Assembly (NCBI GenBank): GCA_964404005.1
Contig: CAYOIH010000002.1
Span: forward strand, 1-55,162
Length of the DNA: 55,162 nucleotides
Direction of reading: 5' to 3'
From: an uncultured Candidatus Saccharibacteria bacterium
Lineage (GTDB): Bacteria > Patescibacteriota > Minisyncoccia > Minisyncoccales > Staskawiczbacteraceae
Positions 2,096 to 54,494 of the stretch are shown piece after piece (positions within the stretch are counted from its first letter, which is position 1; the number at the start of each line of letters is the position of its first letter). Below the pieces are notes generated by a model, which had not been told where the DNA came from, made no database searches, and saw only the letters and a list, made by a program, of their open reading frames with translations. The position numbers were made by a program, and so were the translations under genes.

Positions 2096-2133
2096 CAAAA
2101 ACCGCCCTGAGTTTATCGAAGGACGGTTTTTGG
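2096..2133. terminator. Bidirectional intrinsic terminator built from the GC-rich element (reverse orientation)
   Basis: ccaaaaaccgccctgagtttatcgaaggacggtttttgg: an A-run/T-run flanked hairpin between convergent ruvB and ORF 2135-2803. The core gccctgag...tcgaagg matches the repeat family. Confidence 0.75.
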
Positions 2134-2134
2134 T

Positions 2135-2803
2135 TTATTCAACTTCTGCCTTATATTCCGCTATTCCCTTGTCATTTCTGACTGCCCATGTAATTATTTT
2201 TTTAACTCCTCCTTCGTAGGCTGATTGTCTGGCTGGAGCCATATAATTGCGGTCAACGCTCGATCCAATCCGCGGCACCTGCACGGAAAAACGGCTGTCA
2301 GTATGGCTATTAAAAAGCTCTGCCATCTCACAAAGAGATTCTTCGACTTGTTTCGGCGTTTTTTTCTTATTGTCATATAAAAATTTCGTTACTCCGCGGC
2401 TTACTTCTTTTGCTGCTCCGAGAAGAAACCTGGGGTCGCACTCGGGATATTTCCGAGCCACCTCAAAAAGCTGGAGATGAGCAAAAAACAATTGCGCGTT
2501 TTTGTCGCCTTCTTGTGCAGCCTCCAATAACTCGCTCACGGGCGGTTCATTGATTTTTACATACTCAGGAATGGAAAGGAAATTTACTCCCTCTTCTTTT
2601 TTCTCTAATTCTTTTTCCCTGAAAACATCCACCGCTTTTTCCCCGCGTTTTCCTGCCGCCCTGTCTATTGCGTTTTTCTCCTCTGCTGTCACGCCCTCTT
2701 CTCTCGCGGCATCACGAAGGGGTCTTTCCGCCTCGGCTGCCACCTCGGCATATTTTTCATCTAACCTTTCATCCTCTTGGTGTTGATTAAATTGTTCTCC
2801 CAT
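2135..2803 (-). CDS. Hypothetical protein (acidic N-terminal half, no recognised domain)
   Basis: Uninterrupted 222-aa ORF filling the gap between two terminator/promoter regions. Antisense ORFs are shorter and low-complexity. Confidence 0.6.
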   Translation of the reverse strand: MGEQFNQHQEDERLDEKYAEVAAEAERPLRDAAREEGVTAEEKNAIDRAAGKRGEKAVDVFREKELEKKEEGVNFLSIPEYVKINEPPVSELLEAAQEGDKNAQLFFAHLQLFEVARKYPECDPRFLLGAAKEVSRGVTKFLYDNKKKTPKQVEESLCEMAELFNSHTDSRFSVQVPRIGSSVDRNYMAPARQSAYEGGVKKIITWAVRNDKGIAEYKAEVE

Positions 2804-2890
2804 ATTTTTATATTTTTAAATTATTCCTTTATGCTTAGTTTACCTTCTACAACTATTTTGTCAAACACTTTTATTGTATAATTATAAAAC

Positions 2891-3856
2891 ATGAAAAAAA
2901 TTTTATTAATACTTTTCATTTCATTTTTATATCCAGTTTTTATCTTGGCTCAGGATAAGATTGAGATAAACACGGCCTCGCTCTCTCAATTAGATGAATT
3001 AACCGGCATCGGACCAAAATATGCCCAAGCAATTATTGATGGCAGGCCATATTCTTCGGTGGACGATTTAGACAGGGTAAAAGGAATTGGCCCTGCAACT
3101 TTACAGAAAATAAAAGATCAAGGATTGGCCTGTGTAAATTGTGGCACGGCACAGCCCATTACCCAACCCGCCCAGCCGGTTATCCAACCGGCTACCCCGT
3201 CGGATGACGAGGCAAACCAAGCACCTATCACTTATCCTGGCGGTGTTTTTATAAATGAGATTTTGCCGAATCCTGCCGGAGCCGACTCGGATGACGAATG
3301 GATTGAATTGTATAATTCTAATAGTACTGACGTTGATTTGTCGGGCTGGCAACTGCAAGACATAACCGGAACGGTTTCAATTTTTACAATTAACCCTTCG
3401 GCGGGCTCGGGGCAGGTAAAAATTTTAGCCGGCGGATTTTTGGTTTTTAAAAGGCCAGAAACAAAAATAATGCTAAACAACGATGAAGATGGAATAAATC
3501 TGCTGACGCCAGACAACAAAATTATTGATTCTATAAACTATACAAAAGCTCCTTTGGGCCAATCTTATAATAAGGCACCCTCTGGGTTGTGGACCTGGAG
3601 CGCAACCTTAACCCCGGGAGCAAAAAACATTATTCCTGCGCCAAAAAACGCGCCTGCGTCGGCTACGTCGAAAGCGCTTCCGGCGGACTTGTCAAATGCA
3701 ACAAATTCTGTTAAAAATGATGGTGTAACCACGAACCAAGATAGTGGTTTGACAAATCCTTGGTTTTTATTTTTTACAGTTTTAGCTGTAACAATAATTT
3801 TAGCAGTAATTGTTCTATTTATTAAATTAAAATTTTCAAACCATGTCAGGACATAG
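2891..3856 (+). CDS. Membrane-anchored ComEA-like helix-hairpin-helix DNA-binding protein fused to a lamin-tail domain (LTD)
   Basis: N-terminal signal/TM. INTASLSQLDELTGIGPKYAQAIIDGRPYSSVDDLDRVKGIGPATLQKI is a tandem HhH as in ComEA. INEILPNPAGADSDDEWIELYNSNSTDVDLSGWQLQD is the LTD signature. C-terminal TM FLFFTVLAVTIILAVIVLFI. Confidence 0.8.
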   Translation: MKKILLILFISFLYPVFILAQDKIEINTASLSQLDELTGIGPKYAQAIIDGRPYSSVDDLDRVKGIGPATLQKIKDQGLACVNCGTAQPITQPAQPVIQPATPSDDEANQAPITYPGGVFINEILPNPAGADSDDEWIELYNSNSTDVDLSGWQLQDITGTVSIFTINPSAGSGQVKILAGGFLVFKRPETKIMLNNDEDGINLLTPDNKIIDSINYTKAPLGQSYNKAPSGLWTWSATLTPGAKNIIPAPKNAPASATSKALPADLSNATNSVKNDGVTTNQDSGLTNPWFLFFTVLAVTIILAVIVLFIKLKFSNHVRT

Positions 3857-4568: not shown

Positions 4569-4574
4569 TCGCTC

Positions 4575-7769: not shown

Positions 7770-8918
7770 CTATGCGGATTTAATGGGCATCACCACATAA
7801 ATATAACTTGCATCTCCTACTGGCCTCAGTATACAAGGCCCCTCTTCTTTACTTAAATCAAACATAATTTCTGAACTTTTGATATTTGCCAGTCCATCGA
7901 TCAAAAATTTATGGTTAAAAGAGGCTTCTATCGGCTCCCCCTCTATTTTTGCCGGTATATTAGATTGGCTTTCCCCGATATCTGGGTCTTGGGCAAATAT
8001 TTGAACCTCTTTGTCTTGGGGATTTATTTTAATTTTTATTTCATTAATTTTACCGGAGAAAAGCGACGCTGTTTTAACTTGGTTTAAAAATTCATCCCGC
8101 TTAATAATAACGCGTGTTTTAAATTTTTTAGGAATAATTTCTTCATAATTTGGATATTCCCCGTCTATTAGCCGTGAAATAATTTGAATCTGAGGATGTG
8201 CCGCCTCTCTCATTGGAAGCTCAAACATTGTCTGGTTGGGAGAAAAATATATTTTTAGTTTTCCCTCGGAGTATCCTATGGGCCCGCTTAAAATATTCAT
8301 TAGCTCTCTGGCGGGTTTTTGCGGTAAAATAAAAGAAATGTCTTTTGCTGGGGCTTTATTTGGGTTGTTTTCTAAAGTAATGTTTTTTTCAGCCAACCTA
8401 AAACTGTCCGTAGCAACCATTTTTATTAGGTTTTTTGAAAAAATAAAATAAATTCCCGAAATTTCTGGCCTTGATTGCGAAGGAGAAGCAACATCCACTA
8501 TTTGGGACAACCCTTGATAAAAAGCCCCATTATCAACCTCTAAATACTCTATATTTTTAAACTCGGGAATTAGGGGAAATTCCTCCGGGTTGAACCCCTG
8601 AACTTGGTTTTTAAAATTTTTACACTCAATATATAGCCCTTGTTTTTTTTCTTCTAATATAATTTTTTCGTTGGGCAACAAAGAAACAAGGCTTGAAAGA
8701 AATTTGGCCGGCACTACTGCTTTGCCGCCTTTTATAATTTTAGTTAATATCCATAATTTTATAGCGGTTTCTAAGTCTGTGGAGCTTAAACTTAAAAAAC
8801 TATCTTCTGTGTTTAATAAAACATTGTCTAAAATAGGCAAAGATAGGTTTTTCCCAATAATTTTTTCAATTATACTTAGGCCATTTTTTAGGTTTTCTTT
8901 TAAAATTTCTACTTTCAT
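7770..8918 (-). CDS. dnaN: DNA polymerase III beta sliding clamp
   Basis: 382 aa, directly downstream of dnaA on the same strand. N-terminus MKVEILKENLKNGLSIIEKIIGKNLSLPILDNVLL has the typical DnaN start. Confidence 0.9.
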   Translation of the reverse strand: MKVEILKENLKNGLSIIEKIIGKNLSLPILDNVLLNTEDSFLSLSSTDLETAIKLWILTKIIKGGKAVVPAKFLSSLVSLLPNEKIILEEKKQGLYIECKNFKNQVQGFNPEEFPLIPEFKNIEYLEVDNGAFYQGLSQIVDVASPSQSRPEISGIYFIFSKNLIKMVATDSFRLAEKNITLENNPNKAPAKDISFILPQKPARELMNILSGPIGYSEGKLKIYFSPNQTMFELPMREAAHPQIQIISRLIDGEYPNYEEIIPKKFKTRVIIKRDEFLNQVKTASLFSGKINEIKIKINPQDKEVQIFAQDPDIGESQSNIPAKIEGEPIEASFNHKFLIDGLANIKSSEIMFDLSKEEGPCILRPVGDASYIYVVMPIKSA

Positions 8919-9131
8919 ATTTTTATCAATTAATAATTAAGTATTTAAATAAATAAAATTATTGTTATTAGTGGTTTTATTTTTAATGGTTTTTTAAAAA
9001 AGATAAGTATAAACAGAAATATTTGTTCGGGAAAATTTTTGTGAAAAAGTTGGGGACAACCCAATATAATAAAAAGTGTAATTAATTGTTTGTTTTGCCG
9101 ACGGAAAAATTATTATATTTTTTAACACCAT

Positions 9132-10487
9132 TTATCCACTATATATTCTCTGTTTTATTAGGTTTAATTCTTCGGTTAATTTATTATTTTCTTCATTCTC
9201 TTGCAGGATTTTTTTATAAGCATAAATTGCGGTGGTGTGGTCTTTGCCACCAAACTTTCTTGCTATGGCTGGAAATGAGTATTTTAATTCTCTTCTTAAT
9301 AAAAACATCGCGATTTGCCTTGGTTTTACGATCTCCTTTCGTCTTGTCGGATCAAATAAACTTTTTTCTTCCAGATTATAAAATTTAGCGACGGTTTCTA
9401 TTATTTTTTTATAGTTTGCCACGTCAAACGGCGAAAAAACAAAACCCTTAAGCAGTTTTTTAACAATTTCTATGTTTATCTCCTGGTTAATTTTACTGTA
9501 AATTAATATTTTATTTAAGGCCCCCTCTAGTTCCCGAATATTTTTTTTAACATTAGTGGCGATATAATCTAATATGTCTTCGGGAACGTCTGTGTTCTTT
9601 TCTTGAAGTTTTGTTTTTAGAATAACCAATCTTGTTTCATAGTCCGGCAAACTCACGTCTGCAATCATCCCCCCTTCAAATCTGGACCTCAATCTTTCCT
9701 CCAGCTCTGCTATAGCATTTGGTGGCCTGTCTGAAGAAAGAATTATTTGTTTATTTTTTTCATATAAAGAGTTAAAAACATGGAAAAATTCTTCTTGGCT
9801 TTTATTTTTGCCGGCGATAAATTGAATGTCGTCTAAAATTAAAACGTCTATGGGCGCCAGGCTTGCCTTAAAAGATTCCATACTGTTTGTCCTGATGGCA
9901 GAGACAATGCCGGAAACAAATTTTTCCGAGGAAATATATTTTACTTTTTTCTTTTTTGCCTCGTCGTTTATTTTATTCCCGATAGCCTGTATTAGGTGTG
10001 TTTTGCCTAATCCGGTGCCACCATATATAAATAGCGGGTTATAAGTGAGCCCCGGATTATCGGCTACGGCTAGGGCGGCGGCGTGGGCTAATTCATTAAA
10101 AGATCCGACAACAAAATTATTAAATGTATACCGGGGGTTAAGGTTGGTTTCTTTATTTACTTTAAATTCCTCAAATTTTAATTGCACTTCTTCTTGTTTC
10201 TCGCTATTTGAGGCCACTTTGGCCGGGGTATTTTTTGATAATTGAGGTTTTATAATAAAATCTAAATCCTTTATGGAGTCATCTATATCATGCAGGGTTT
10301 TTAAAATTAATTTATTATATTTATTGCTCAGCCACTCTTTAGAAAAGGCGTTGGGGACCGAAATTATTATTTTTTCATTCTCCTTAGATATAATTTCAGT
10401 GTTTTGAAACCAAGTGGCAAAATTAGCCATAGATATATGAAACTGCATTTGTGCTAAAACTGACTGCCAAAGCTCTAAATTATCCAT
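9132..10487 (-). CDS. dnaA: Chromosomal replication initiator DnaA
   Basis: Walker A GGTGLGKTHLIQAIGN, Walker B LILDDIQFIAGK, C-terminal DNA-binding signature GGKDHTTAIYAYKKI. Confidence 0.96.
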   Translation of the reverse strand: MDNLELWQSVLAQMQFHISMANFATWFQNTEIISKENEKIIISVPNAFSKEWLSNKYNKLILKTLHDIDDSIKDLDFIIKPQLSKNTPAKVASNSEKQEEVQLKFEEFKVNKETNLNPRYTFNNFVVGSFNELAHAAALAVADNPGLTYNPLFIYGGTGLGKTHLIQAIGNKINDEAKKKKVKYISSEKFVSGIVSAIRTNSMESFKASLAPIDVLILDDIQFIAGKNKSQEEFFHVFNSLYEKNKQIILSSDRPPNAIAELEERLRSRFEGGMIADVSLPDYETRLVILKTKLQEKNTDVPEDILDYIATNVKKNIRELEGALNKILIYSKINQEINIEIVKKLLKGFVFSPFDVANYKKIIETVAKFYNLEEKSLFDPTRRKEIVKPRQIAMFLLRRELKYSFPAIARKFGGKDHTTAIYAYKKILQENEENNKLTEELNLIKQRIYSG

Positions 10488-10857
10488 AATTATAAGCGAG
10501 AGAAGATTAAATTATTTTTTATATCAACCAAACGATGAATAGTTAAAATTATCTGTGTAATCTGATAAATTGTTTCCAGTAAATACATTTTTCTCTTTTA
10601 TTGAGTCTTTGTCAAATAGAAACAAAATAGAGAGAGGTGTTATTAAACTGTGGATAACTTGTGTGGTTCGTTTTAACGAAGACGCACAATAGAACCGAAG
10701 CTGATTTACAAATTTACTAATTTGCGGCTTCGGATACTAATCTTTTCGTATTTGTATATTAGTAAAAGATTTGTAAATTTGTAGCCCGTCGAGCTTGTAA
10801 TTTTCGGTTTTTTAAACTATACTAATTAATATTATACTTAATTAAAAAATACATACA
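10488..10857. other. Candidate oriC / divergent promoter region between dnaA and rpmH
   Basis: 370-nt AT-rich non-coding spacer in the canonical dnaA|rpmH position. It contains one perfect DnaA box, a stem ccgaagc/gcttcgg (10695-10733) and an AT-rich inverted repeat (atttacaaatttactaat / attagtaaaagatttgtaaat). Confidence 0.6.
10649..10657 (-). promoter_or_regulatory. Perfect DnaA box (TTATCCACA on minus strand)
   Basis: The plus strand reads tgtggataa at 10649-10657. Confidence 0.7.
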
Positions 10858-10992
10858 ATGAGCTCAACATATAAACCAAAAAAGAAGAAAAGAGCCAATA
10901 CGCACGGCTTTTTAAGAAGAAAAAAAACAAAAACCGGCAGGCAGGTGTTGCAGAAAAGGAGGAGAAAGGGAAGAAAAAGAATAGCCATATAA
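10858..10992 (+). CDS. rpmH: 50S ribosomal protein L34
   Basis: Hand translation MSSTYKPKKKKRANTHGFLRRKKTKTGRQVLQKRRRKGRKRIAI*, with the conserved L34 core (THGF..R..T..GR.VL..RR.KGR). Below the ORF-track size cut-off. Confidence 0.93.
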   Translation: MSSTYKPKKKKRANTHGFLRRKKTKTGRQVLQKRRRKGRKRIAI

Positions 10993-10998
10993 AAACTG

Positions 10999-11340
10999 AT
11001 GCTACCCTCAATTAATAGAATAAAAAAGAAAAAAGACTTTGAGGCAATCTTTAAGAAGTCAAAAAGTTTTAAAAACGATATTTTCATTCTAAAAGTGGCA
11101 AAAAATACCCTAGGATTGAACAGGTTTGGGTTTATTGTCAGCTTAAAAATATCAAAAAAAGCGACAATAAGAAATAAAATCAGAAGGAGGTTGGCAGAGG
11201 CGTTTATGGCTAAAGGAAAAAACATAAAACCGGGGACAGACTTAGTTTTAATCGCTTTACCTGGTATAAAAGAGAAGGACTTTTCAGCGATAACGGGCGC
11301 CGTAAAAGACGCCTTGGTCGGGGCGGGGCTCTTCAATTAA
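10999..11340 (+). CDS. rnpA: RNase P protein component
   Basis: Basic 113-aa protein directly after rpmH, with RNR-type motif KKATIRNKIRRRLAEA. Confidence 0.88.
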   Translation: MLPSINRIKKKKDFEAIFKKSKSFKNDIFILKVAKNTLGLNRFGFIVSLKISKKATIRNKIRRRLAEAFMAKGKNIKPGTDLVLIALPGIKEKDFSAITGAVKDALVGAGLFN

Positions 11341-11353
11341 ACAAAAAGAAAAA

Positions 11354-12109
11354 ATGTTTGAATTTGTAGTAAATTTTTTTTATATTATACTGTACCAACC
11401 TCTCTTTAACTCTTTGGTGCTGCTGTATAATTATGTGCCGGGGCATGATTTTGGCATAGCCATAATACTTTTGACTATAATTATCAGATTTATACTTTAC
11501 CCGCTTTCAGTAAAAGCTGTAAATTCCCAAAGAAATCTTCAGAAGCTTCAGCCACTGATGAAGGAAATACAGAATAAATATAAAGACGATAAAGAAAAAC
11601 AGGCAAAGGAAACCTTGGCCCTATATAAAAAAGAAAAAATAAATCCTTTTTCGGGCCTGCTTTTAAGTCTTATACAAATACCTATATTAATAGCGCTTTA
11701 CAGGGTATTTTGGAGCGGATTAAACCCAAAAGAGCTCTCTGTTTTATATAGTTTTATTTCAAATCCCGGGAATATAAATCCTTGGTTTTTATATATAATT
11801 GATTTATCTAAGCCCAATTTAATATTGGCTATTTTTGCCGGCGCGGTGCAGTATTTCCAAACAAAAATGCTGCTTCCTAAAAATGTTCCAAGCGCAGGTG
11901 GACAAGGCAAGGGAGCGGATATGTCTCAAATAATGCAAAAACAAATGACATATTTTATGCCGGTATTTACAGTGATAATACTTATAGGCCTGCCGTCTGC
12001 TTTGGGGTTATATTGGACAACGAGCGGATTATTTTCTATAATTCAGCAGTATTTAATTTTCAGGGGAAAAAAAGTAGGAGGGGTTGAGGGGCGCCCCGTA
12101 AAAACATAA
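11354..12109 (+). CDS. yidC: Membrane protein insertase YidC/Oxa1 (short form)
   Basis: Multi-TM 251 aa. PLMKEIQNKYKDDKEKQAKETLALYKKEKINPFSG is the conserved YidC C1-loop motif. Canonical position after rnpA. Confidence 0.9.
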   Translation: MFEFVVNFFYIILYQPLFNSLVLLYNYVPGHDFGIAIILLTIIIRFILYPLSVKAVNSQRNLQKLQPLMKEIQNKYKDDKEKQAKETLALYKKEKINPFSGLLLSLIQIPILIALYRVFWSGLNPKELSVLYSFISNPGNINPWFLYIIDLSKPNLILAIFAGAVQYFQTKMLLPKNVPSAGGQGKGADMSQIMQKQMTYFMPVFTVIILIGLPSALGLYWTTSGLFSIIQQYLIFRGKKVGGVEGRPVKT

Positions 12110-12112
12110 AAT

Positions 12113-12619
12113 ATGTTAGAACAAAAAGACATAAACAATATTAAAAGGGCGGTAGAGGAATTTTTTGAGAAGATGACAATAACGGTTTATAATATAGACG
12201 CCGATTTGTCGTCCGTAAAAAAAGAGGCCCGAGACGGGCAGGATGTAGTCGAGGAGAACATAGAGGTTATTAATTTAAATATAAGGATGGATGAACCTCA
12301 AATTTTAATTGGCCAGCAAGGGCAGACGCTTTTTGAAATCCAGCGACTTTTACGAGCCATTTTAAGCAGAAGATTACAAGGGGTTTTTTATCTAAATTTA
12401 GACATCAACGATTATAAAAAACAAAAAACAGAATATTTAAAAAATACAGCTGTAGAAATGGCTAATCAGGTGGCCCTATCTAAAAAGGGAAAAGAGCTTC
12501 CGCCGATGTCGTCTTATGAAAGAAGGATTATACATGCAGAATTAGCCGGGAGGACAGATGTTTCCACAGAAAGCCAGGGCGAAGGTCCCGACAGGCATAT
12601 TATAATAAAGCCCAGTTAG
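12113..12619 (+). CDS. jag: Jag/KhpB-type RNA-binding protein (KH + R3H)
   Basis: C-terminal R3H motif MSSYERRIIHAELA; canonical position after yidC. Confidence 0.85.
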   Translation: MLEQKDINNIKRAVEEFFEKMTITVYNIDADLSSVKKEARDGQDVVEENIEVINLNIRMDEPQILIGQQGQTLFEIQRLLRAILSRRLQGVFYLNLDINDYKKQKTEYLKNTAVEMANQVALSKKGKELPPMSSYERRIIHAELAGRTDVSTESQGEGPDRHIIIKPS

Positions 12620-12677: not shown

Positions 12678-13862
12678 TTAGATTATCGGGACAATGGTCA
12701 CACAATTTGGGACTACTCCGCCGTGGTTTCTTATTTCATCCCACTTTATTTGCAGGGGTCCGGTTTTATTTATGTCGTCTGGCGTAGGAAATTCTTGGCA
12801 CGAATCGTTCATAACACTCTTACACGTTTCCCCAGGACCGGCATAACTGAGTAAAACAAGATAATCTTTGCCTATTTTTATAGATGAAATATTTTCACCG
12901 CTAAGGGTCGGGCACCTTCTGCCGTCACTGGCGCATTTTCCGTCTTTATCATATTTTACGCAACTCTGTTCTTCTTCGGGCACGCCACAATTATTTTTTG
13001 CGGGAGAGGATGCGTCGCAATTACCCCCCATTGTAAAAGTTAAATCATCTAATTTTTTTATATAGAGGCCATTGATTTGAGAGCTTGGGACATAAAAATA
13101 TCCTCCGCAATCGTTAAAAAAAGATTTATGGTAAAAATATACCCCGTCGCCGGAAGGGTCAAAATTGTATTGATAAACAGATGCGGACGAAGCCCCAATT
13201 GGGCTTGGTTGACAGCCGCTTGGGTTGATGTACTGGCATTTTCCTTGAAAATTTATTGTCTCATATAAAATTGATACATAATAAGTGTCGTTATCTATGT
13301 CTGGTACGTTTTTTGCAGAATTTACTTTTTTTCTCAATGATGGCCCCAAATCTTTAGCGCTTGATGTATAAAGCTGGGCTTCTGCACCGGAGCATCCGGC
13401 GTTGTTATATAAATAAACGCCCGGAATTTGTTTTACTGCCGGAGCCGTTACTTCTGCGGCCGGTAATGGCGTTGTGGAGAATGCTTTAAGTTGGGGGTTA
13501 ATAGTGGTTATAATTAAATATGTTGAAACTAAAATTAGCAAACCGGATATTGCTCCCGACACCCTGTCTTTTGCGGCTCCCAGCAAGTCAGATTTTATCG
13601 GGGATAAAGCATACATTACCCCGGCGATAGCCAAAGAAATAAAAACAGCGGCAACGCCGACAAGCATTCCGGCATTAAATAAATATATTGCAAAATCAGG
13701 TAATTTTGTTTCAGGAGTTATGGTTTTTCCGGCTATTGTCGGATAACTTTTTACTTCTAACTCCGCCGCCAAAATTTTGTTTGTAGAAAAGCAAGAAAAG
13801 TTTCCACATAAAAAAACCAGGAAAATAACAGCGAGAATAAATTTTTTATATTTTTTTATCAT
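12678..13862 (-). CDS. Pilin-module fusion protein 4 (VirB2/TrbC-like two-TM N-terminus + Cys-containing extracellular domain)
   Basis: Start moved to MIKKYKKFIL (13862) to avoid overlap with the upstream gene. The order is signal peptide, TM1, loop LGAAKDRVSG, TM2, TINP, Pro-rich linker, then PGVYLYNNAGCSG... shared with the two upstream paralogs. Confidence 0.75.
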   Translation of the reverse strand: MIKKYKKFILAVIFLVFLCGNFSCFSTNKILAAELEVKSYPTIAGKTITPETKLPDFAIYLFNAGMLVGVAAVFISLAIAGVMYALSPIKSDLLGAAKDRVSGAISGLLILVSTYLIITTINPQLKAFSTTPLPAAEVTAPAVKQIPGVYLYNNAGCSGAEAQLYTSSAKDLGPSLRKKVNSAKNVPDIDNDTYYVSILYETINFQGKCQYINPSGCQPSPIGASSASVYQYNFDPSGDGVYFYHKSFFNDCGGYFYVPSSQINGLYIKKLDDLTFTMGGNCDASSPAKNNCGVPEEEQSCVKYDKDGKCASDGRRCPTLSGENISSIKIGKDYLVLLSYAGPGETCKSVMNDSCQEFPTPDDINKTGPLQIKWDEIRNHGGVVPNCVTIVPII

Positions 13863-13875
13863 TGTTAATCTTTTT

Positions 13876-14943: not shown

Positions 14944-14955
14944 ATTAATTGGCCA

Positions 14956-16110: not shown

Positions 16111-16129
16111 ATTTTTTATTAATTTTTAA

Positions 16130-19123: not shown

Positions 19124-19168
19124 CGCCCTGTTGCGTTTTTAAAATTTTTTAAATTCCAATATCCAATC

Positions 19169-20971: not shown

Positions 20972-20990
20972 AAAGATAAAAATATAAAAA

Positions 20991-21653: not shown

Positions 21654-21665
21654 AGTAACCTTTCT

Positions 21666-22073: not shown

Positions 22074-22092
22074 AATATTTATAAGTTTATTT

Positions 22093-22122
22093 ATTATACC
22101 ATGCATAAAAAAGTACAGACAA
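22093..22122 (-). promoter_or_regulatory. Putative promoter of the T4SS-like operon (TTGTCT-18-TGgTATAAT)
   Basis: The minus strand reads ttgtct gtacttttttatgcatgg tataat. The extended -10 TGn is present, and -10 ends 19 nt before the ATG at 22073. Confidence 0.5.
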
Positions 22123-22139
22123 CAACAGTTCTCAACACC

Positions 22140-22168
22140 TTGACAAGGGTGTTTTAATATGATATAAT
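22140..22168 (+). promoter_or_regulatory. Consensus sigma70 promoter (TTGACA-17-TATAAT) for the SPFH gene
   Basis: ttgaca (22140-22145), 17-nt spacer, tataat (22163-22168). A leader hairpin gtgcgg-gtgta-ccgcac follows, then SD aggag (22236-22240) 7 nt before the ATG. Confidence 0.75.
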
Positions 22169-41939: not shown

Positions 41940-43475
41940 ATGTTGATTAAAGTTCCGTCGGTGGCAAATTTGGGCCTACAAACAATAAAGGTTGATATTG
42001 AAATAAACTTGGCAAATAAGGGTTTGCCCGGGTTCGAAATTGTTGGTCTGGCCGATAAGGCAGTTGATGAGAGCAAAGAAAGAGTTCGTACCGCCATTGT
42101 GAGCTCGGACGTTGATTTTCCTGCAAAGAAAATAACAGTTAATATGGCTCCGGCCGATGTTCCAAAAGAAGGCTCGCATTATGATTTTCCAATTGCGCTT
42201 GGAATTTTAAGTAGTGTGCTTGAGTTTCAAATTCCCCAAAAATCTTTATTTTTAGGCGAGTTGTCGTTTGACGGTTCTTTGCGCCACACAAAGGGTGCTT
42301 TTTTAATGGCGCTTTTTGCCAAAGAATTTGGTTTCACAAATTTATTTGTGCCAAAAGATTCGGCCAATGAAGCCGCCGCCATAAAGGGAATAAAAGTTTT
42401 TCCTGTTGAAAATTTAACCCAAGTTTGCGGGTATTTTTTAGGGAAAACGGATATTTTTCCGGTAGTTTATAAACAAGTTTCAGAAAAAGATTGCTCACCA
42501 GTTGAGTTTGATATGAAAGAAGTTTTAGGTCAGGAGCAGGCAAAAAGAGCAATGGAAATTGCGGCAGCGGGCGGGCACAATATTATAATGACCGGCTCCC
42601 CCGGATCTGGTAAAACAATGCTGGCGCGGGCACTACCTGGAATTTTACCTCCGTTAAACGAAGCGGAATCTCTGGAAGTTACAAAAATTTATTCAGCCTC
42701 CGGAGGCATTCCTCCCGGTGGCTCTTTAATAACCCGCAGACAGTTTAGGTCACCCCACCACACAGCGAGTTTGGCGGGATTGGTTGGCGGAGGAAGTAAG
42801 CCGCAACCCGGCGAAATAAGCTTAGCTCACCGCGGTGTTTTATTTTTGGACGAGTTTAATGAATTTCCAAGGTCAATTATGGAGGCAATGCGTTAGCCAT
42901 TGGAAGACGGATATTTAACAATTTCAAGAAGTAAGCAAAGAGTGGTTTATCCTGCCGATTTTATGTTGGTTGCCTCGGCCAACCCCTGCCCTTGCGGATA
43001 TGCAATGCATCCAAAAAAAACTTGTACTTGTAATCCAAACCAGATTGTTAAATATCAAAAAAGAGTTTCGGGGCCAATTTTAGACAGAATTGATTTACAT
43101 ATTTCTGTGATGCCCGTTGACGCGTCTGAATTTTCTGGTAACCAAAAAAACTCTGAGTTTTTAGAACCATCGGAAAAAATTAAACAAAGAGTTATTTTTG
43201 TTCGCCAAAAACAGGAAGCTCGTTTTGCAAATGAGCCCATACACTCAAACAGCCAAATGAAAAACAGCCACATTAAAAAATATTGCCAACTCCCAAAAGA
43301 GGTGGAACAAATTTTAACGCAGGCAGCTGCTAAATTTCAGCTTTCGGCCAGGTCTTATATGAAAATGATAAAAGTGTCGCGTACAATTGCGGATTTAGAA
43401 GGTGCTGAAGAAATTGGCATCTCTCATATGGCAGAAGCATTGCAATATAAACCAAGGTCGCACGAAACTGCATAG
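41940..43475 (+). pseudogene. comM: ComM/YifB Mg-chelatase-like competence ATPase interrupted by a single in-frame TAG (42894-42896)
   Basis: The two listed ORFs (41940-42896, 42900-43475) are in the same frame. Walker [18 protein letters not shown], Walker [15 protein letters not shown]. The junction reads EAMR*PLEDGYLTISR, where homologs have RQPLEDG, so the change is CAG (Gln) to TAG. Confidence 0.85.
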
Positions 43476-43555: not shown

Positions 43556-43948
43556 ATGTCACAACATAATGAGGTGGGGAAAATTGGGGAGGATTTGGCA
43601 AGGGAATATTTGGAGAAAAATGGGTATAAGATTTTAGAACAGAATTATAGGACAAAATATGCCGAGATTGATTTGGTTGCCCTTCGCCCGGCTCAGGGTA
43701 AACTGGGGTGGTTTTTTGGTAAAGAAACCCTGGTGTTTGTGGAGGTGCGAACAAAAGTTGGCGAAAATTTTGGCAGCCCAGAAGACACAATAAACAAGCA
43801 AAAGCTTTGGAAAGTTTTGCAAAACGCCAAAAGTTATTCGGCATTTAAAAGGTGGCAAGGCTCAGAGCGCATTGACGCTATTTGCATTGTTTTAAAGCAG
43901 GACTATTCTGTCAGCCGCCTCACCCACCACGAAAACATCGTTTCATAA
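43556..43948 (+). CDS. yraN: YraN-family (UPF0102) endonuclease-like protein
   Basis: Start placed at MSQHNEVGKIGEDLAREYLEKNGYKILEQNYR; EIDLVA...LVFVEVRTK core. The core is split by the in-frame insertion LRPAQGKLGWFFGKE carrying the GC-rich element. Confidence 0.8.
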   Translation: MSQHNEVGKIGEDLAREYLEKNGYKILEQNYRTKYAEIDLVALRPAQGKLGWFFGKETLVFVEVRTKVGENFGSPEDTINKQKLWKVLQNAKSYSAFKRWQGSERIDAICIVLKQDYSVSRLTHHENIVS

Positions 43949-47130: not shown

Positions 47131-49134
47131 ATGAGTTTGATTTATTATCCGATAATTGTTTCGTTGTTTGCAATAGTGTTTGTTTATTATTTAACAGTGC
47201 AGATTAAGAAGGCGCCAGTTGCGGGAGATAAAGCAATTGCCATAACCGCAGCAGTGCAGGAGGGGGCAATGTCTTACTTAAAAAGACAGTATAAGACAAT
47301 TGCCATTGTTGGAGTAGTTATTTTTATTCTATTATTTTTTATGGGCTGGAAAATTGCCATCGGATTTTTAATTGGAGCTGTTTTGTCTGGAGTTTCCGGA
47401 TTTATTGGAATGATTGTTTCCACTCAAGCAAATACCAGAGTTGCCGAAGCCGCAAAAAAAGGCTTGGAAAAAGCTTTGGATATTTCTTTTAAGGGAGGCC
47501 TAATCACGGGCTTAATGGTGGTATCTTTGGGTTTATTATCTGTTGCGGGATACTATCTTTTAACAGGAATTGACGGCTTGATAGCTTTGGGATTTGGAGC
47601 TTCTTTGATTTCGGTTTTTGCCAGAGTTGGTGGAGGAATTTACACAAAGGCAGCCGATGTGGGAGCAGACTTGGTTGGAAAAGTTGAGAAAGGAATTCCA
47701 GAGGATGATCCAAGAAATCCAGCAGTTATCGCCGACCAGGTTGGAGACAACGTGGGAGACTGCGCAGGCATGGCAGCCGATATTTTTGAAACGTACGCTA
47801 TTACAACAGTGGCGGCAATGATTTTGGGCGCGTTGCTTTTTCCAAGAGCAACACAGTTTATTTTATTGCCTCTAATTTTGGGAAGCGTTTCAATTTTAAC
47901 TTCTATTATAGGAAGTTTCTTTGTAAGATTGCCTGCCCTGAGCCGAGTCGAAGGGGGTAAGTCGCAATCCATTATGGGTTCTATGTATAAAGGATTGGCA
48001 GCCACAGTTATTTTGTCGGCAATCGCATTTTATCCCATAATCACAAAATTAATGGCAGGGCAGGCAATTCCGGTAAACAACCTTTATTTTTCAACATTGG
48101 TGGGATTGGTAATCGCGGTTGGAATGTTTGTTATCACAGAGTATTACACCTCAAAAAAATATGGTCCGGTAAAATCAATTGCCAAGGCTTCAGAAACAGG
48201 CCACGCAACAAATATAATCAGGGGAATTGGATTAGGAATGCAGTCAACAGCTTTCCCGGTTTTGTTAATTGCATTTGGAACAATTTTAAGTTTTTGGCTG
48301 GCTGGAATTTACGGAGTTGCATTAGCCGGCGTGGCAATGCTTTCCATTTCCGGAATTGTTGTTGGAGTTGATGCTTACGGCCCGATTACAGATAACGCCG
48401 GAGGAATTGCAGAAATGTCGGGAATGCCGGAAGGCGTCAGAAAAATCACAGACGCGTTGGATGCGGTTGGAAACACAACAAAGGCAGTCACAAAAGGATA
48501 CGCAATTGCTTCAGCAGGATTGGCGGCGTTGGTTTTGTTTTCCGCATACGTTGAAAAGGTTGGCATAAACGGTTCAATAAATTTTTCATTAACAAATTCT
48601 TATGTTATTGCCGGTTTATTAATCGGCGGACTGCTTCCCTACTTGTTTGCTTCATTTTTAATGGGAGCTGTCGGGAAAACAGCGGGAAAAGTTGTTGAAG
48701 AAGTAAGAAGGCAATTCAAAAATATCACAGGATTAATGGAAGGCACAGCAAAACCGGAATATGGAAAATGCGTTGATATTGTCACTAAAGCCGCAATTAA
48801 AGAAATGATGATTCCAGCCTTAATCCCAATTGCAGCTCCAATTTTAGTGGGATTTATTTTAGGGCCCGAAGCTTTGGGAGGATTATTGATTGGAGCAATT
48901 GTCACGGGATTATTTGTTGGAATTTCAATGACAACAGGAGGAGCTGCGTGGGACAACGCCAAAAAATACATTGAAGGTGGAGCGCATGGAGGCAAAGGTT
49001 CATTTGCCCACCAAGCCGCCGTCACCGGCGACACCGTCGGCGATCCTTACAAAGATACTGCCGGCCCGGCTATTAACCCAATGATTAAAGTCCTTAACAT
49101 CGTAGCGCTTTTAATCGTCGCTTTTCTAGTTTAG
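47131..49134 (+). CDS. hppA: Membrane-bound proton/sodium-translocating pyrophosphatase
   Basis: [61 protein letters not shown]. Contains the in-frame insertion [11 protein letters not shown]. Confidence 0.96.
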
Positions 49135-49794: not shown

Positions 49795-51072
49795 ATGATT
49801 ATGAAAACAGAAACTAAGAAATTACCTAAGTCGCAAATAGAATTAACTTTTGAATTAACGCCAGAGGAATTTGCTGAGCATTTTTCTCATGCGGTGGAGC
49901 ATTTAAAACATCACGTGAAGGTTGATGGGTTTAGGGAGGGAAAAGCCCCAGCATCAATGGTTGAAGAAAAACTAAAACCGGAAATGTTGCTAATGGAAGC
50001 CGGCGACCACGCTGTCCAGCACGTTTATACGGATTATGTTAAAGACAATAAATTAGAGCCGGTTGGCCAGCCGGAGGTTTCAATTATAAAAATAGCTAAG
50101 GGCTCCCCTTTTGTATTTAAGGCGGTGATGACAATATTGCCGGACGTTGAGTTGCCAGACTACAAAGAAATTGCAAAAACAGTTAAGGGAAAGGATGTTG
50201 ATGTTACAGAAGAAGAGGTCCAAGATTCTATAAATTATTTACAGAAGACCAGAGCAAAATTTACAGCGCACAATGATCCCGCCCAATTAAAAGACTTTAT
50301 TGAAATAAAATATAAAAGCAAAGATATTGAAAATAACAAGGAGATAGACGATAAATTTATTTTGGGCGAAGGCGGGTTTATGAAGGGATTTGAAGATGGG
50401 ATTGTTGGAATGAAAGCCGGAGAAGAAAAAGACATCACGGTAAAATTTGCTGACGACCTGCCAAGAAAGGATTTGGCCGGCAAAGAGTCAGTTTTTGAAG
50501 TAAAAATGATTTCTGTGCAAAAAATGGAGTTACCAGAAATTAATGACGAGTTTGCAAAACAACTTGGCAGTTTTGAAACATTAGTTGCTTTAAGGGGCAG
50601 TATGAAAGAAGGAATTATATTGGAAAAAACAGAAGCAGAAAAGCAAAGGGTAAGGGGAGAAATTTTGGAAAAAATAGCAGAAAAAGCAAAGTTCGAAATG
50701 CCAGAGGCTATGGTGGAATACGAAAAGCAGAGATTACTGGAAGATTTAAAAAACAGGGTTACTCAAGCTGCTAAAATCAGTTTTGAGGAATATTTGGCGT
50801 CAGTTAAAAAAACAGAAGAAGAAATAAAGGCAACTTATCAAAAAGAAGCCGAAAAAAGATTGCGAGGATTTTTGGTTTTAAGGGAGTTAGGCAGAGAAGA
50901 AAAAGTGGAGGTTTCCGATAAAGAAGTAGAGGAAGAAGTAAATAAAGTCATGAAGGGACAAACCCTTCGGCAAGCTCAGGGCGAAATTGACATAAATCAA
51001 TTTCGAGAGTATACTAAGGGTGTAATTCATAACGAAAAAGTATTTCAAATTTTGGAGAATCTTTCAAAGTAA
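49795..51072 (+). CDS. tig: Trigger factor
   Basis: N-terminal ribosome-binding domain KSQIELTFELTPEEF and FKBP-type PPIase FILGEGGFMKGFEDGIVGMKAGEEKDITVKF. Carries the in-frame insertion TLRQAQGE near the C-terminus. Confidence 0.93.
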   Translation: MIMKTETKKLPKSQIELTFELTPEEFAEHFSHAVEHLKHHVKVDGFREGKAPASMVEEKLKPEMLLMEAGDHAVQHVYTDYVKDNKLEPVGQPEVSIIKIAKGSPFVFKAVMTILPDVELPDYKEIAKTVKGKDVDVTEEEVQDSINYLQKTRAKFTAHNDPAQLKDFIEIKYKSKDIENNKEIDDKFILGEGGFMKGFEDGIVGMKAGEEKDITVKFADDLPRKDLAGKESVFEVKMISVQKMELPEINDEFAKQLGSFETLVALRGSMKEGIILEKTEAEKQRVRGEILEKIAEKAKFEMPEAMVEYEKQRLLEDLKNRVTQAAKISFEEYLASVKKTEEEIKATYQKEAEKRLRGFLVLRELGREEKVEVSDKEVEEEVNKVMKGQTLRQAQGEIDINQFREYTKGVIHNEKVFQILENLSK

Positions 51073-51073: not shown

Positions 51074-51319
51074 ATGACAAGAGCATTTTTGGCGAAAATC
51101 AAGAACAAAAAATTTCCTATTATCGTAGAAAAAGACGATAAGTTTTATGTTGTTGAGTGCCCGGTTTTTAGGGGATGTTATACGCAGGGAAAAACTATAG
51201 ATGAGGCTTTAAAAAATATCAGAGAAGTTATTGAGTTGTGCTTGGAGGAAAAAGAAAATCAGCAAATTCTTGAATTGTATAATCCAAAAGAAATAAGCCT
51301 TCACAATATAGCTTTTTAA
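51074..51319 (+). CDS. hicB: HicB-family antitoxin (UPF0150)
   Basis: KFYVVECPVFRGCYTQGKTIDEALKNIREVIELCLEE; its stop overlaps the hicA ATG (TAATG). Confidence 0.85.
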   Translation: MTRAFLAKIKNKKFPIIVEKDDKFYVVECPVFRGCYTQGKTIDEALKNIREVIELCLEEKENQQILELYNPKEISLHNIAF

Positions 51320-51543
51320 TGTCAAAATTACCATCACTTTCCGGCAAAAACGCCATAAAAGCATTTATAAAAATAGGATATAAGGTCGTCCGACAAAAAG
51401 GCAGTCATATCCGTTTATTGCATTGCGATATTCATAGAATACCGCTAACTGTCCCAGACCATAAGGTTTTAGGGAAAGGATTATTAAGGAAATTACTAAG
51501 AGATGCCGAAATATCTGTTGATGAATTTATAAAATTACTTTAA
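51319..51543 (+). CDS. hicA: HicA-family mRNA interferase toxin
   Basis: LSGKNAIKAFIKIGYKVVRQKGSHIRLLH...IPLTVPDHKVLGKGLLRKLL is the YcfA/HicA signature. Confidence 0.85.
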   Translation: MSKLPSLSGKNAIKAFIKIGYKVVRQKGSHIRLLHCDIHRIPLTVPDHKVLGKGLLRKLLRDAEISVDEFIKLL

Positions 51544-51562: not shown

Positions 51563-52199
51563 ATGCAAAACCAAAAAGGAATTTTCCCGCCACAGCGGGA
51601 TCACGCTCGCGGTGGGACAACATTATTAGTCGGCATTATAATCATTGTTGCTATAGCATTTGTTGCTTTCGGCGGAGTGTTTGCCTACCAATATTTTTCA
51701 ACGCAAAAAGCAGATAATCAGCTCTTAAACGATCAGCAGAGCCAACAACAGCAGACAGACGAGCAACAAACAAATAATACTCAACCAACAGCCCAAACCG
51801 CTGGACCTGTCCCGAGCGAAGTCGAGGGATGGAAAACATATACAAATAATGCCTATAATTATCAAATAAGCTATGTCTCAAGTGCAACCATAGGAGAGAC
51901 TGGCGGCTCTGTAAAAATACAGTACCAAAACGGGAATATTACAATTTGTTCCGCGTCGGTGGGCGCTTGCGGAAATGTCCCAGGAGTTGGCGGAGAAGCA
52001 ACAGCAGTAAATAGAGAAGTAGTTATTGAGGGGGGGGAAGTATAATTTTTACGGCTACATTTTAGATGGTGATGAATTTTTATATTCTGAATCACTGCCG
52101 AATAATATGTTCGTTGAGTTGACTATTAATAATTACCAAAACATCGGCACCGAAAACAAGCTGTTTGAAATGCTTTCCACTTTTAAATTTACGAAATAG
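51563..52199 (+). pseudogene. Anchored extracellular protein (paralog of 30927-31718) frameshifted at a G8 tract
   Basis: The ORF stops at 52045 just after G8 (52030-52037). Removing one G restores ...EGGKYNFYGYILDGDEFLYSESLPNNMFVELTINNYQNIGTENKLFEMLSTFKFTK* ending at 52199, and that C-terminus matches ...IISTFKFTN of the paralog. Confidence 0.75.
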
Positions 52200-52226
52200 C
52201 GTTTAAAAATTAAAAATTAACGAAGA

Positions 52227-52808
52227 ATGCCAATAGTACCAACTATTGTAGAAAGAACACAGCGCGGTGAGCGCGCATACGATATATTTTCAAGGCTTTT
52301 AGAAGAGCGCATAATTTTTCTTGCGGGTCCTGTCACAGATATGAACGCCAACGTGGTTATCGCCCAGATGCTTTATTTAGCATCAAAGGACTCAAAAAGA
52401 GATATAAAGCTTTATATAAACAGCCCCGGAGGTTCGGTTACAGCAGGGTTAGCTATTTACGACACAATGCAGTATTTAAAATGCCCGGTTTCCACCATTT
52501 GCATAGGGCTTACGGCTTCTATGGCAGCGGTTATTTTAGCGTCAGGCACAAAAGGAAAGAGATTTTCTTTGCCTAATGCTGAAATTTTATTGCACCAAGT
52601 TGCCGGAGGCATGCAAGGGCAGGCCGCAGACATTGAGATTACTGCAAAACAGATTCTTCATATGAAGCAGAAGTTGAATAAAATTATTGCATCCCACACA
52701 GGACAGCCTTTAGCTAAGGTGGAGACAGATACTGACAGGGATTTTTATTTAACCGCAGAAGAAGCCAAAAAATATGGGCTTATTGATGAAGTAATTGGTG
52801 GAAAGTAG
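52227..52808 (+). CDS. clpP: ATP-dependent Clp protease proteolytic subunit
   Basis: [18 protein letters not shown] (Ser), LLHQVAGG (His), [19 protein letters not shown] (Asp). Confidence 0.96.
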
Positions 52809-52893
52809 ATAGTAACCGGTAAAAAGAAAATATATTTTATGCACACTCACTGAGCAAGTGAGTTGTTTTATTAAAATTAAATAATAAAAATAT

Positions 52894-54426
52894 ATGGATC
52901 AAATAATTTTATCAGTAATTGTAGCGGCAGTAGCCCTGATTTTAGGCTCTATTATAGGCTATTACATGAGGCAGAACCTGGCGAAAAGAAGAGCCGGAAC
53001 GCTTGAGGCAAAACTGCAGAAAAGAGTTATAGATGTTAAGGAGGAGACATCGCGGATGGTTAAGGATGCGGAGAGAAAATCGTCAGATCTTTTAGACAAG
53101 GCGCAAAAAGATATCGATGAAAGGAGAAAAGAGTTTTTGAAGGCTCAGGAGCTTTTATTGGGCAGAGAAAGCTTGCTTAACGAAAGAATAGTTTCCTTTG
53201 AGGGAAAAGAGAAAGAGCTGCAAGACAAGGTGGAAAAATTAAAAACCATAAAAGAAAGTTTAGAGCAGTTGAGGTTGGAAGCTGAGGGTAAACTGGAAAA
53301 AGTGGCCAACCTATCAAGGGAGGACGCAAAAAAAGAATTGCTGGCTTTGGTTGAAATTGAAAAGGAAAAAGAAATTTTAGAGAGAATGAAAAAATTGGAA
53401 GAAAGCAATCAGGAAAAATTTCAGGCGAGGGCAAAAGAAATTGTCGCCATAGCAATTCAGAAGTGCGCTGTTTCCCAGGCGCAGGAGCTGACGACAACAA
53501 CAGTCATACTTGCCAACGAAGAATTAAAGGGCAGAATTATCGGAAAAGAAGGCAGAAACATAAGAACATTCGAAAAACTGACCGGAGTTGAATTAATTGT
53601 AGACGAAACCCCGGAGTCGGTTGTCATCTCGTGCTTTAATCCGATAAGAAGGCAGATTGCCAAAGTTGCTCTGGATAAATTGATTGCTGACGGCAGAATA
53701 CAGCCGGCAAAAATCGAGGAAAAATATGAGGAAGCAAAAGCGGAAATTGCTGTTAAAATAAGAGAAGCCGGAGATAAGGCAGCTTATGATGTTGGAGTTA
53801 TCGGGCTGAACGAAAAATTAGTCCAGATTTTAGGCAGATTGTATTACAGAACCAGCTACGGCCAGAACGCGCTTTTGCATTCGATGGAGGTTGCTTTAAT
53901 ATCAGAAACAATTGCAGAAGAATTGGGAGCCAACAGCCAGATAGCGAAAAGAGCCGGGCTTCTGCACGATATTGGAAAAGCAATCGACCAGCAGATACAG
54001 GGTTCGCATATTGAAATTGGAATTAAAATTCTGGAAAAATTTGGCGAGTCGGAAGCTGTTATAAAAGCAATGAGAACTCACCACGGAGATTATCCGGTGG
54101 AGTCTTTGGAAGCTACAATTGTTACGGTCGCTGACGCAATTTCAAGCTCAAGGCCTGGAGCCAGAAAAGATACGATGGAAAATTACCTGCAAAGACTGAA
54201 AGATTTGGAGGATATTGCCAATAAATTTGAAGGCGTTGAAAAAACTTATGCAATCCAGGCGGGCAGGGAAATCCGCGTGTTTGTGAAATCTGACAGGGTT
54301 GATGATTTGCAAGCTGTGAAAATGGCTAAGCAAATCGCCGGAGAAATCGAAGAAGAATTAAAATACCCTGGAGAGATTAAAGTTGTGGTTATCCGCGAAA
54401 ATCGCGTCATCGAGTACGCAAGATAA
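52894..54426 (+). CDS. rny: Ribonuclease Y
   Basis: N-terminal TM, coiled coil, KH GRIIGKEGRNIRTFE, HD domain GLLHDIGKA. Confidence 0.95.
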   Translation: MDQIILSVIVAAVALILGSIIGYYMRQNLAKRRAGTLEAKLQKRVIDVKEETSRMVKDAERKSSDLLDKAQKDIDERRKEFLKAQELLLGRESLLNERIVSFEGKEKELQDKVEKLKTIKESLEQLRLEAEGKLEKVANLSREDAKKELLALVEIEKEKEILERMKKLEESNQEKFQARAKEIVAIAIQKCAVSQAQELTTTTVILANEELKGRIIGKEGRNIRTFEKLTGVELIVDETPESVVISCFNPIRRQIAKVALDKLIADGRIQPAKIEEKYEEAKAEIAVKIREAGDKAAYDVGVIGLNEKLVQILGRLYYRTSYGQNALLHSMEVALISETIAEELGANSQIAKRAGLLHDIGKAIDQQIQGSHIEIGIKILEKFGESEAVIKAMRTHHGDYPVESLEATIVTVADAISSSRPGARKDTMENYLQRLKDLEDIANKFEGVEKTYAIQAGREIRVFVKSDRVDDLQAVKMAKQIAGEIEEELKYPGEIKVVVIRENRVIEYAR

Positions 54427-54456
54427 CATCTGACTGCTAACAACTAATTTATAACT

Positions 54457-54494
54457 AAAAAACCGTCCTTCGACAAGCTTAGGGCGGTTTTTGG
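54457..54494. terminator. Bidirectional intrinsic terminator built from the GC-rich element (forward orientation)
   Basis: aaaaaaccgtccttcgacaagcttagggcggtttttgg. This is the same core as 2096-2133 in the opposite orientation. Confidence 0.8.

Follow-up and report, generated by a model that had tools for sequence, protein, structure and literature searches.

The classic Rickettsia palindromic element (RPE), RPE-1, is 100-150 bp long and adds 30-50 residues to a protein, and the RPEs (RPE-1 to RPE-8) are confined to Rickettsia. The GC clusters and byp elements of fungal mitochondria are short GC-rich hairpins in an AT-rich compact genome, where they form several families, occupy hot spots and include copies in coding sequence. 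The DNA uptake sequences (DUS) of Neisseria and the uptake signal sequences (USS) of the Pasteurellaceae are fixed duplex words of 9-12 nt, specific to their lineages, which arise by substitution and occur about once per kb. Intragenic repetitive extragenic palindromic (REP) sequences have been documented in other bacteria, those lying in frame being catalogued in Opitutus terrae, Rickettsia conorii and others (Di Nocera et al. 2013, PMC3733652), and the REP tag is defined as GTAG or CGTC at one end of the palindrome (PMC3733652). Here we describe a family of GC-rich hairpin repeats with a 24-nt unit, found both between genes and in frame within housekeeping genes of contig CAYOIH010000002.1 (GCA_964404005.1). 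The stretch analysed, hereafter the window, covers positions 1 to 55,162 of the forward strand (55,162 nt). It has a G+C content of 39% and a gene content of ordinary housekeeping genes, and homologs 85-94% identical to its HppA and PNPase bear the name Candidatus Staskawiczbacteria, one of the lineages within Patescibacteria. The repeat is probably a miniature palindromic DNA element of the REP/RPE kind.

As in the REP/REPIN systems, the repeat is an imperfect, GC-rich palindrome of short length (20-40 nt) that is present many times (11-12 copies in 55 kb), has a conserved unpaired tail at one end, prefers the gaps between convergent genes, where an RNA hairpin could act, adds a few residues in some intragenic copies, and forms inverted doublets and clusters, here in other hosts of the motif. 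In contrast to REPs, it lacks the GTAG/CGTC tag, the tail being CCTGC/GCAGG in most copies; its loop is conserved and its stem variable; the inserted unit is a constant 24 nt; and eight of the 12 copies lie inside open reading frames (ORFs), whereas REPs are mostly extragenic. In addition, a search of the window ORFs, which cover about 55 kb of the genome, and of the genes called at relatives' loci turned up no RAYT gene. The RPEs had been taken as the precedent in a first-pass annotation of the window, and this analogy holds for behaviour, not for membership. Like RPEs, the repeats are palindromic and in frame in housekeeping genes of a reduced genome, with the host ORF intact; they sit in loops (according to the HppA model, which is one protein, and to alignments for rsmA, pnp and tig); and their presence or absence differs between related genomes, here at hppA, pnp, rsmA, dprA and yraN. 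Length and lineage restriction, however, do not agree with the precedent, since the unit of 24 nt adds eight residues and the host belongs to the Patescibacteria, with the motif also present in Proteobacteria, Vulcanimicrobiota and viral contigs. The fungal GC clusters and byp elements are likewise GC-rich short hairpins of several families, some of them in protein-coding genes, but they sit in a eukaryotic organelle.

The repeat family and its hairpin

In the window the family has 11 clear copies and one probable copy, with the motif CCCTTCGRC-N2-4-GCTCRGGGCAGG. Read on one strand, a copy consists of CCCTTCGRC, two to four variable bases and GCTCRGGG, usually followed by CAGG; the opposite-strand form is CCTGCCCYGAGC-N-YCGAAGGG. 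Three of the 12 copies are intergenic and terminator-like, the probable one lies in the pnp leader, and eight are inside ORFs, the hosts being a comEA-like gene, rsmA, pnp, dprA, yraN, hppA, tig and ORF 51563. All ten sites cited by the first-pass annotation carry the motif at the positions it gave, but its inventory had missed the dprA copy (41130-41153) and the probable copy in the pnp leader (34143-34166).

The copies are one family, far above chance, as had been proposed. The exact pattern CCTTCGRC-N{1,4}-GCTCRGG occurs five times in the window against 0.00 expected from 100 dinucleotide-preserving shuffles, and a looser pattern of two half-sites occurs 12 times against 1.6 expected (maximum 6 in 200 Markov simulations). 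The pattern tried first, with a fixed 4-nt spacer, had no matches in the window because the spacer length varies. A covariance model, the test suggested in the annotation, was trained on 19 aligned copies (11 from the window and eight from other loci). With filters off, the 11 window copies aligned at 28-35 bits, noise began below 12 bits, and the next-best match in the window was 34142-34171, at 16 bits. The window copies match the model by construction, and the independent test therefore lies in other DNA: the model found six new copies, absent from the training set, at E <0.03 in 92 kb of close relatives, and only five strong matches in about 2.4 Mb of hppA neighbourhoods of other bacteria. 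Copy density is about one per 4.6 kb in the window, one per 15 kb in the relatives and one per 480 kb elsewhere. The close relatives were obtained by protein search and contig look-ups; the compared DNA loci carry labels of the type L081, L083 or L130, and a set of PNPase homologs the labels P0122-P0126.

Insert-bearing HppA is recorded on 12 contigs and insert-bearing RsmA on 11, so the copies are not an assembly artefact. In addition, point changes have accumulated between orthologous copies from different assemblies. Together with the shuffle counts, these observations rule out an assembly or sequencing error and a chance match of a degenerate pattern, a reading for which only the shortness of the motif speaks and whose probability is practically nil.

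The core of the repeat is an imperfect hairpin, with a short stem, usually CCCT/AGGG, around a conserved loop that reads TCGAC-N2-4-GCTC on one strand and GAGC-N-GTCGA on the other; many copies have an unpaired tail, GCAGG (CCTGC on the opposite strand). On the GAGC...TCGA strand, the base order is such that the loop could form tandem G.A/A.G mismatches and then a G-C pair. The loop is constant and the stems vary, comprising CCCT/AGGG, TCCC/GGGA, CCCC/GGGG and CCGTCC/GGGCGG (with a T.G wobble), and further CCGCAT/GTGCGG (L089), AATGCT/AGCATT (pnp leader) and TGCT/AGCA (L146). Between the pnp copies of the window and L130, a stem pair has undergone a compensatory change from T-A to C-G, the second half of which is a silent change of GAA to GAG. 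The fixed loop, the covarying stems and this compensatory change point to selection on the hairpin.

At gathering thresholds, Rfam matched only tRNAs in the window, and permissive Rfam scans of one Sphingobium copy and two viral arrays gave no relevant family. A resemblance to the tRNA T-arm (TTCGACTCC) was considered and dropped, because the flanks cannot form a T-stem. Full-text literature searches with DNA words of the motif and with the derived peptides returned no relevant paper, consensus sequences often being placed in figures, so that the family may be described; concept searches returned general REP literature only.

In-frame copies with filled and empty sites

In hppA, which encodes a membrane pyrophosphatase, the copy at 47932-47955 (forward strand, as are all copies below except the one at 2093-2135) reads CCTGCCCTGAGCCGAGTCGAAGGG, encodes PALSRVEG and is a 24-nt insertion. 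PALSRVEG was found in none of 80 HppA homologs from species-representative genomes. At >=85% identity, 105 of 120 homologs have a short loop and no insert, and the remaining 15 carry at least six kinds of insert at three sub-positions; the proteins retrieved as hppA relatives from a genome collection and from metagenomes were at most 65% and 66% identical, respectively, and served as negative controls. At the DNA level, the site is empty in L081 and L084, and the window and L083 carry CCTGCCCTGAGC(CGAG/GTAG)TCGAAGGG, exactly 24 nt. In L087 the same 24-nt unit stands one codon downstream of the window's position, which indicates an event independent of that in the window, and in other relatives the same loop holds unrelated GC-rich hairpins. 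The only protein modelled was the window HppA: its AlphaFold model, with a mean pLDDT (a per-residue confidence score) of 63, is mediocre overall and was therefore used for the local loop only. In this model the insert (residues 268-275) is predicted to be coil with pLDDT <50 between helices of pLDDT about 90, in line with the surface loop expected by the annotation.

Two genes on the minus strand carry inserts of the same size. The pnp copy (33340-33363; CCCGCCCUGAGCGGAGCCGAAGGG in the mRNA) encodes PALSGAEG and is a 24-nt insertion, seen as a clean indel of 8 codons in comparison with L129 (PNPase 94% identical), where aaier is directly followed by dgevl (aaier-PALSGAEG-dgevl in the window). 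The homologs P0122-P0126, 93-94% identical, are without the insert, and L130 carries an orthologous pnp copy. The rsmA (ksgA) copy (27341-27364; CUUGCCCUGAGCCGUGUCGAAGGG in the mRNA) encodes LALSRVEG and is likewise a 24-nt insertion and a clean 8-codon indel, lagnl being directly followed by skelk in L130 where the window has lannl-LALSRVEG-sktle. The closest RsmA homologs have no insert, and the Bacillus subtilis KsgA loop is shorter at this site, which is a variable loop. In alignments, the insert positions of rsmA, pnp and tig are all variable loops.

In the N-terminal part of dprA, the copy at 41130-41153 (CCTGCCATGAGCAGTGCCGAAGGG, 24 nt, encoding PAMSSAEG) has empty counterparts in L083 and L129, the difference amounting to about 7-8 codons for a 24-nt unit, and L084 has a different hairpin (CCTGCCTCGCCACAAGGCGGG) at the same site. 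The copy in yraN (UPF0102), at 43680-43703 (CCCTTCGCCCGGCTCAGGGTAAAC, encoding ALRPAQGK), is orthologous in L083 and L084 and missing from L082, where the gene is 6 codons shorter. The annotation had held that the encoded peptides sit where homologs have no residues or a loop. Comparison with insert-free orthologs confirms an insertion in hppA, pnp and rsmA (a clean 8 codons), dprA (about 7-8) and yraN (6), but not in the trigger factor gene tig, where the copy near the C-terminus (50963-50986; CCCTTCGGCAAGCTCAGGGCGAAA, encoding TLRQAQGE) replaces a patch of similar length with a net gain of one codon and is not a simple insertion. In the gene for the ComEA-like protein (HHH_3 and LTD domains), the region of the copy at 3394-3417 (CCCTTCGGCGGGCTCGGGGCAGGT, encoding PSAGSGQV) is 5 residues longer than in the L088 ortholog, with the sequence replaced. 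The remaining copy, at 51806-51829 (CCTGTCCCGAGCGAAGTCGAGGGA, encoding PVPSEVEG), lies in ORF 51563-52045, which encodes a hypothetical membrane-anchored protein with no Pfam match, and has a C-G stem pair in place of the T-A of other copies. Between tig and this ORF, at 51074-51543, two small ORFs resemble, as judged by eye, a toxin-antitoxin pair of the HicB/HicA type.

Five independent events show discrete 24-nt units with near-identical ends (CYYGCC...GAAGGG), namely hppA in the window and L083, hppA in L087, pnp against L129, rsmA against L130, and dprA against L083/L129. The unit equals eight codons, so its insertion never shifts the frame. In the window, the frames used are PALSxxEG (five copies), LRxAQG (two) and PSxGSGQ (one), and a fourth, SFDAAQG, is used in L087; copies lie in both orientations relative to the mRNA. 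The three frames, the fourth in L087, both orientations and the existence of intergenic copies mean that it is the nucleotide motif that is conserved, not a peptide. The stop-containing frame (G CCC TGA) is not used by any in-frame copy, which, together with the unit of eight codons, argues that the inserts are translated. This sets them apart from byp elements, which the ribosome skips and whose frame is free: here both the avoidance of the stop frame and a length divisible by three imply translation. Codon phase is invisible to DNA insertion, and selection on the peptide is therefore the best explanation for the small number of frames, with their small polar residues.

Filled and empty sites vary among relatives whose host proteins are 89-96% identical, the kind of presence/absence polymorphism that the annotation had proposed to look for. 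Reciprocal cases also occur: tig and cca of L087, and another part of the comEA-like gene of L088, hold copies at places where the window has none. Meanwhile, PNPase and RsmA homologs have family-derived peptides at many sites and in both orientations. Taken together with the hppA and dprA loops described above, the alignments indicate that the same loops have repeatedly and independently received the 24-nt unit or other GC hairpins.

Other GC-rich hairpins also occur in genes of the window. The palindromes in cca, rsmA and dprA (41725-41770), which had been put forward as its kin, turned out to belong to other hairpin families. A second in-frame GC palindrome family, CCTGCCTGCCGGCAGGCAGG, encodes (S)LPAGRQ and occurs in the window at 36637-36656 (cca), in L087 tig and in several PNPase homologs; in cca, the inserted element adds 7 codons that are absent from L087, L129 and L130. 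A third family consists of two tandem TCCGCC-NNN-GGCGGA hairpins that encode SAQGGSASGG at window 27776-27805 (rsmA), a 10-codon insertion against L130, and a like peptide, AKGGSASGG, is inserted in the L081 trigger factor. The dksA-like gene has a GC-rich hairpin insert of 27 nt (about 29476-29505, encoding ALGRSQTGE) that is found in neither L129 nor L130, and pnp has a 15-nt insert (33430-33462, PEGHP) at a PNPase site that holds PSTSSGQA in other relatives. In the C-terminal part of dprA, a 48-nt palindromic stretch at 41717-41764 is of another hairpin type.

Intergenic copies and occurrence beyond the lineage

Three copies lie between convergent genes. The copy at 2093-2135 (minus strand), with the stem AACCAAAAACCGTCCT/AGGGCGGTTTTTGGTT around the conserved loop TCGATAAACTC, sits between ruvB (1084-2094, plus strand) and an ORF at 2135-2803 (minus strand), and its folding energy is -12 to -15 kcal/mol on either strand. 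The copy at 29324-29357 has the stem CCCC/GGGG and A/T tracts around the loop TTGATAAGCTC and separates a LysM-M23 peptidase gene (plus) from the dksA-like gene (minus). The third, at 54458-54492, has the stem AAAAACCGTCCT/AGGGCGGTTTTT around the loop TCGACAAGCTT and lies between rny (RNase Y, plus) and an ORF at 54506-55024 (minus); its ortholog is kept in L081. In each of the three, flanking runs of A (one side) and T (opposite side) prolong the stem, and all fold at -10 to -16 kcal/mol on either strand. A stable GC-rich hairpin with a U-run at a gene 3' end, the mark of an intrinsic terminator, is present in all three, and their predicted anatomy is that of bidirectional intrinsic terminators at convergent gene pairs, as the annotation had read them. 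A consensus terminator scanner listed just 29334-29350 among them; it missed the other two because its loop limit is 8 nt. A probable fourth copy outside ORFs, at 34143-34166 in the untranslated leader upstream of pnp, has the variant stem AATGCT-TCGACCTTGCTC-AGCATT and scores 16.2 bits (E=0.047). It is the weakest member of the family and could be a chance match.

The motif also occurs outside the lineage. Identical 20-mers were found in another Patescibacteria metagenome-assembled genome (MAG; locus L004) and in a Vulcanimicrobiota MAG of 63% G+C, the latter with copies clustered just after hppA. At L004 5340-5460, some 100 nt upstream of hppA, a copy overlaps with the 5' end of a gene on the opposite strand that by eye resembles a tRNA gene. 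A 33-nt GC-rich version of the motif is present in 54 plasmid records, and Sphingobium megaplasmids carry it at up to 22 intergenic places each; at one of these, two inverted copies form a doublet between convergent genes. In IMG/VR, 39 contigs, mostly of 55-70% G+C and some of them multi-copy, contain the pattern CCTGCCCTGAGCNNNNTCGAAGGG, in which 20 bases are specified. One viral contig has a nested array in which four left halves (CCCTTCGACTCC) precede four right halves (GCTCAGGGCACG), and in other viral contigs a 24-nt unit is nested in the loop of another unit; GC-rich viral contigs have dense clusters of up to 12 copies in 14 kb. IMG/VR contigs with arrays or dense clusters include L119 (1-130), L112 (2329-2454) and L095 (6300-13482).

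These observations bear on whether the repeat could be a functional RNA structure selected in place, such as an RNase processing or stability signal, a translational pause or a terminator, which would arise repeatedly through its usefulness and not be copied. The stems covary around a conserved loop, the loop may contain a tandem G.A motif, the three intergenic copies are built like terminators and another sits in the pnp leader, all of which such a structure would explain. However, copies lie in both orientations relative to the mRNA (3 to 5), the hairpins within genes are weak, no Rfam family matches, most close relatives do without copies in the same genes, and identical 20-24-mers in different phyla cannot be convergent. 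We regard selection in place as very improbable.

Mode of spread and alternatives

If the repeat is, as we consider probable, a REP/RPE-like element, the 24-nt unit would spread by copy-and-paste, with the copying done either by an enzyme that is specific for single strands or hairpins, acts in trans and has its gene elsewhere in the genome, or by template switching from copy to copy during replication. DNA taken up by the cell would then recombine and redistribute the filled and empty alleles. In essential genes, copies would persist only where the peptide is tolerated, that is, in variable or surface loops and in frames with small polar residues (PALSxxEG, PSTGSGQA, LRQAQG). In intergenic copies, the stem would have grown into the flanking A- and T-tracts, and these copies may serve as bidirectional intrinsic terminators. 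A copy-and-paste element fits the clean 24-nt units with constant ends, the recurrent events in the same loops, the patchy distribution and the nested arrays. The descriptive claims are strong, and that on the mode of spread is less so.

Several observations weigh against such an element. No transposase, Y1/RAYT protein or homing nuclease was found among the window ORFs, including small ones (55 kb of genome), and the genes called in relatives' loci, about 186 kb in all, include no obvious mobilising enzyme. Neither a target-site duplication nor a conserved target is seen at the five clean junctions; a miniature inverted-repeat transposable element, for which terminal inverted repeats and a target-site duplication are expected, would differ in this respect. 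The window copies have no orientation bias relative to the likely origin (8 to 4) or to transcription (3 to 5). The evidence for the terminator role is sequence anatomy, and the intragenic hairpins in isolation are weak, at -4 to -9 kcal/mol. Nested left/right arrays can arise by duplication and quasi-palindrome correction, with no insertion. Finally, the tig patch shares GCTCA with the ancestral sequence, and for this copy templated repair or gene conversion would fit better than transposition.

The likely replication origin at about 10.5-10.9 kb is indicated by a cluster of dnaN and dnaA, then rpmH, rnpA, yidC and jag on the opposite strand (7770-12619), but the signals conflict, since the minimum of the cumulative GC skew and a switch of gene strand lie near 36 kb. 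Small stand-alone GIY-YIG nuclease genes (85-98 residues) occur in the loci of three relatives (L083 20866-21123, L089 21038-21298 and L130 682-978), with no evidence that ties them to the hairpin repeats.

An enzyme-free spread, by template switching or short-patch gene conversion between hairpin copies (quasi-palindrome or microhomology-mediated repair) with selection and recombination after uptake then sorting the alleles, is a serious alternative, even if we hold it to be rather unlikely. It accounts for the tig patch, of similar length and with GCTCA in common with the ancestral sequence, and for symmetric nested arrays, which duplication and palindrome correction would yield, without an enzyme; it is also consistent with the want of a transposase in the window ORFs and of target-site duplications at the junctions, and with the presence of genes for competence-type proteins (ComEA, DprA and a ComM-like protein). 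In contrast, five independent events of exactly 24 nt with the same ends look like a defined unit rather than variable templated patches, and the unit, including its tail, is also found in distant phyla and viral contigs.

The competence genes, two of which host copies, raise the further possibility of a DNA uptake signal of the DUS/USS type, accumulating by biased uptake and recombination, which would explain the terminators and the tolerant parts of genes. The signals of Neisseria and Haemophilus also form terminators and prefer certain frames in genes, and the repeat shares with them a short over-represented motif, a host with competence genes, a location in terminators and tolerant gene regions, frame preferences and a patchy distribution of filled and empty alleles. 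However, the conserved part here is a hairpin loop with variable stems and a variable centre, and no fixed duplex word; the copies are clean 24-nt insertions, not substitutions; the density of about one per 4.6 kb is below that known for uptake sequences; and multi-copy occurrence in unrelated phyla and viral contigs is the opposite of self-recognition. Because the conserved loop has free stems, the copies are insertions and the motif crosses phyla, a role in uptake is distinctly improbable. As to the competence genes themselves, a single in-frame TAG at 42894-42896 splits the comM/Mg-chelatase-like gene of the window (EAMR*PLEDG), which in relatives is one uninterrupted gene of 511 residues, and where we would expect Gln at the position of the TAG; the gene may carry a nonsense mutation or be a pseudogene, or the TAG may be a sequencing error.

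A more far-reaching version of the copy-and-paste reading, which we put forward as tentative and somewhat doubtful, is that the 24-nt unit itself is mobile and among the smallest such elements known. Its length of eight codons would open coding sequence to it, it would insert into the loops of its own copies to give the nested arrays, it would range across phyla, viral contigs included, and it would be the source of the PSTGSGQA, PALSGAEG, LRQAQG and FDKLR-type peptides in metagenomic proteomes. Since the unit is shared across phyla and viral contigs, such an element would depend on a widespread hairpin-specific enzyme or on a general replication process.

Elsewhere in the window, positions 12678-22217 hold a block of genes of the type IV secretion or conjugation kind (two T4SS_pilin proteins, a TraG/VirB4-like ATPase and PrgI), together with large proteins without a family match.

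For the biology of this group, the family would mean that short hairpin repeats are being seeded even into a candidate phyla radiation genome as small as about 1 Mb, and that they alter the length of essential proteins (PNPase, KsgA, trigger factor and the proton or sodium pyrophosphatase) from strain to strain at about 90% protein identity. It offers a DNA-level account of the odd low-complexity peptides that recur in metagenome-derived proteins, which can mislead alignment, clustering and structure prediction, and suggests how the lineage acquires terminators. The filled and empty sites are usable as strain markers. Meanwhile, the search for the copying mechanism of minimal elements has a concrete target in the constant 24-nt unit, in the conserved loop whose stems are free, and in the distribution over several phyla and viral contigs.

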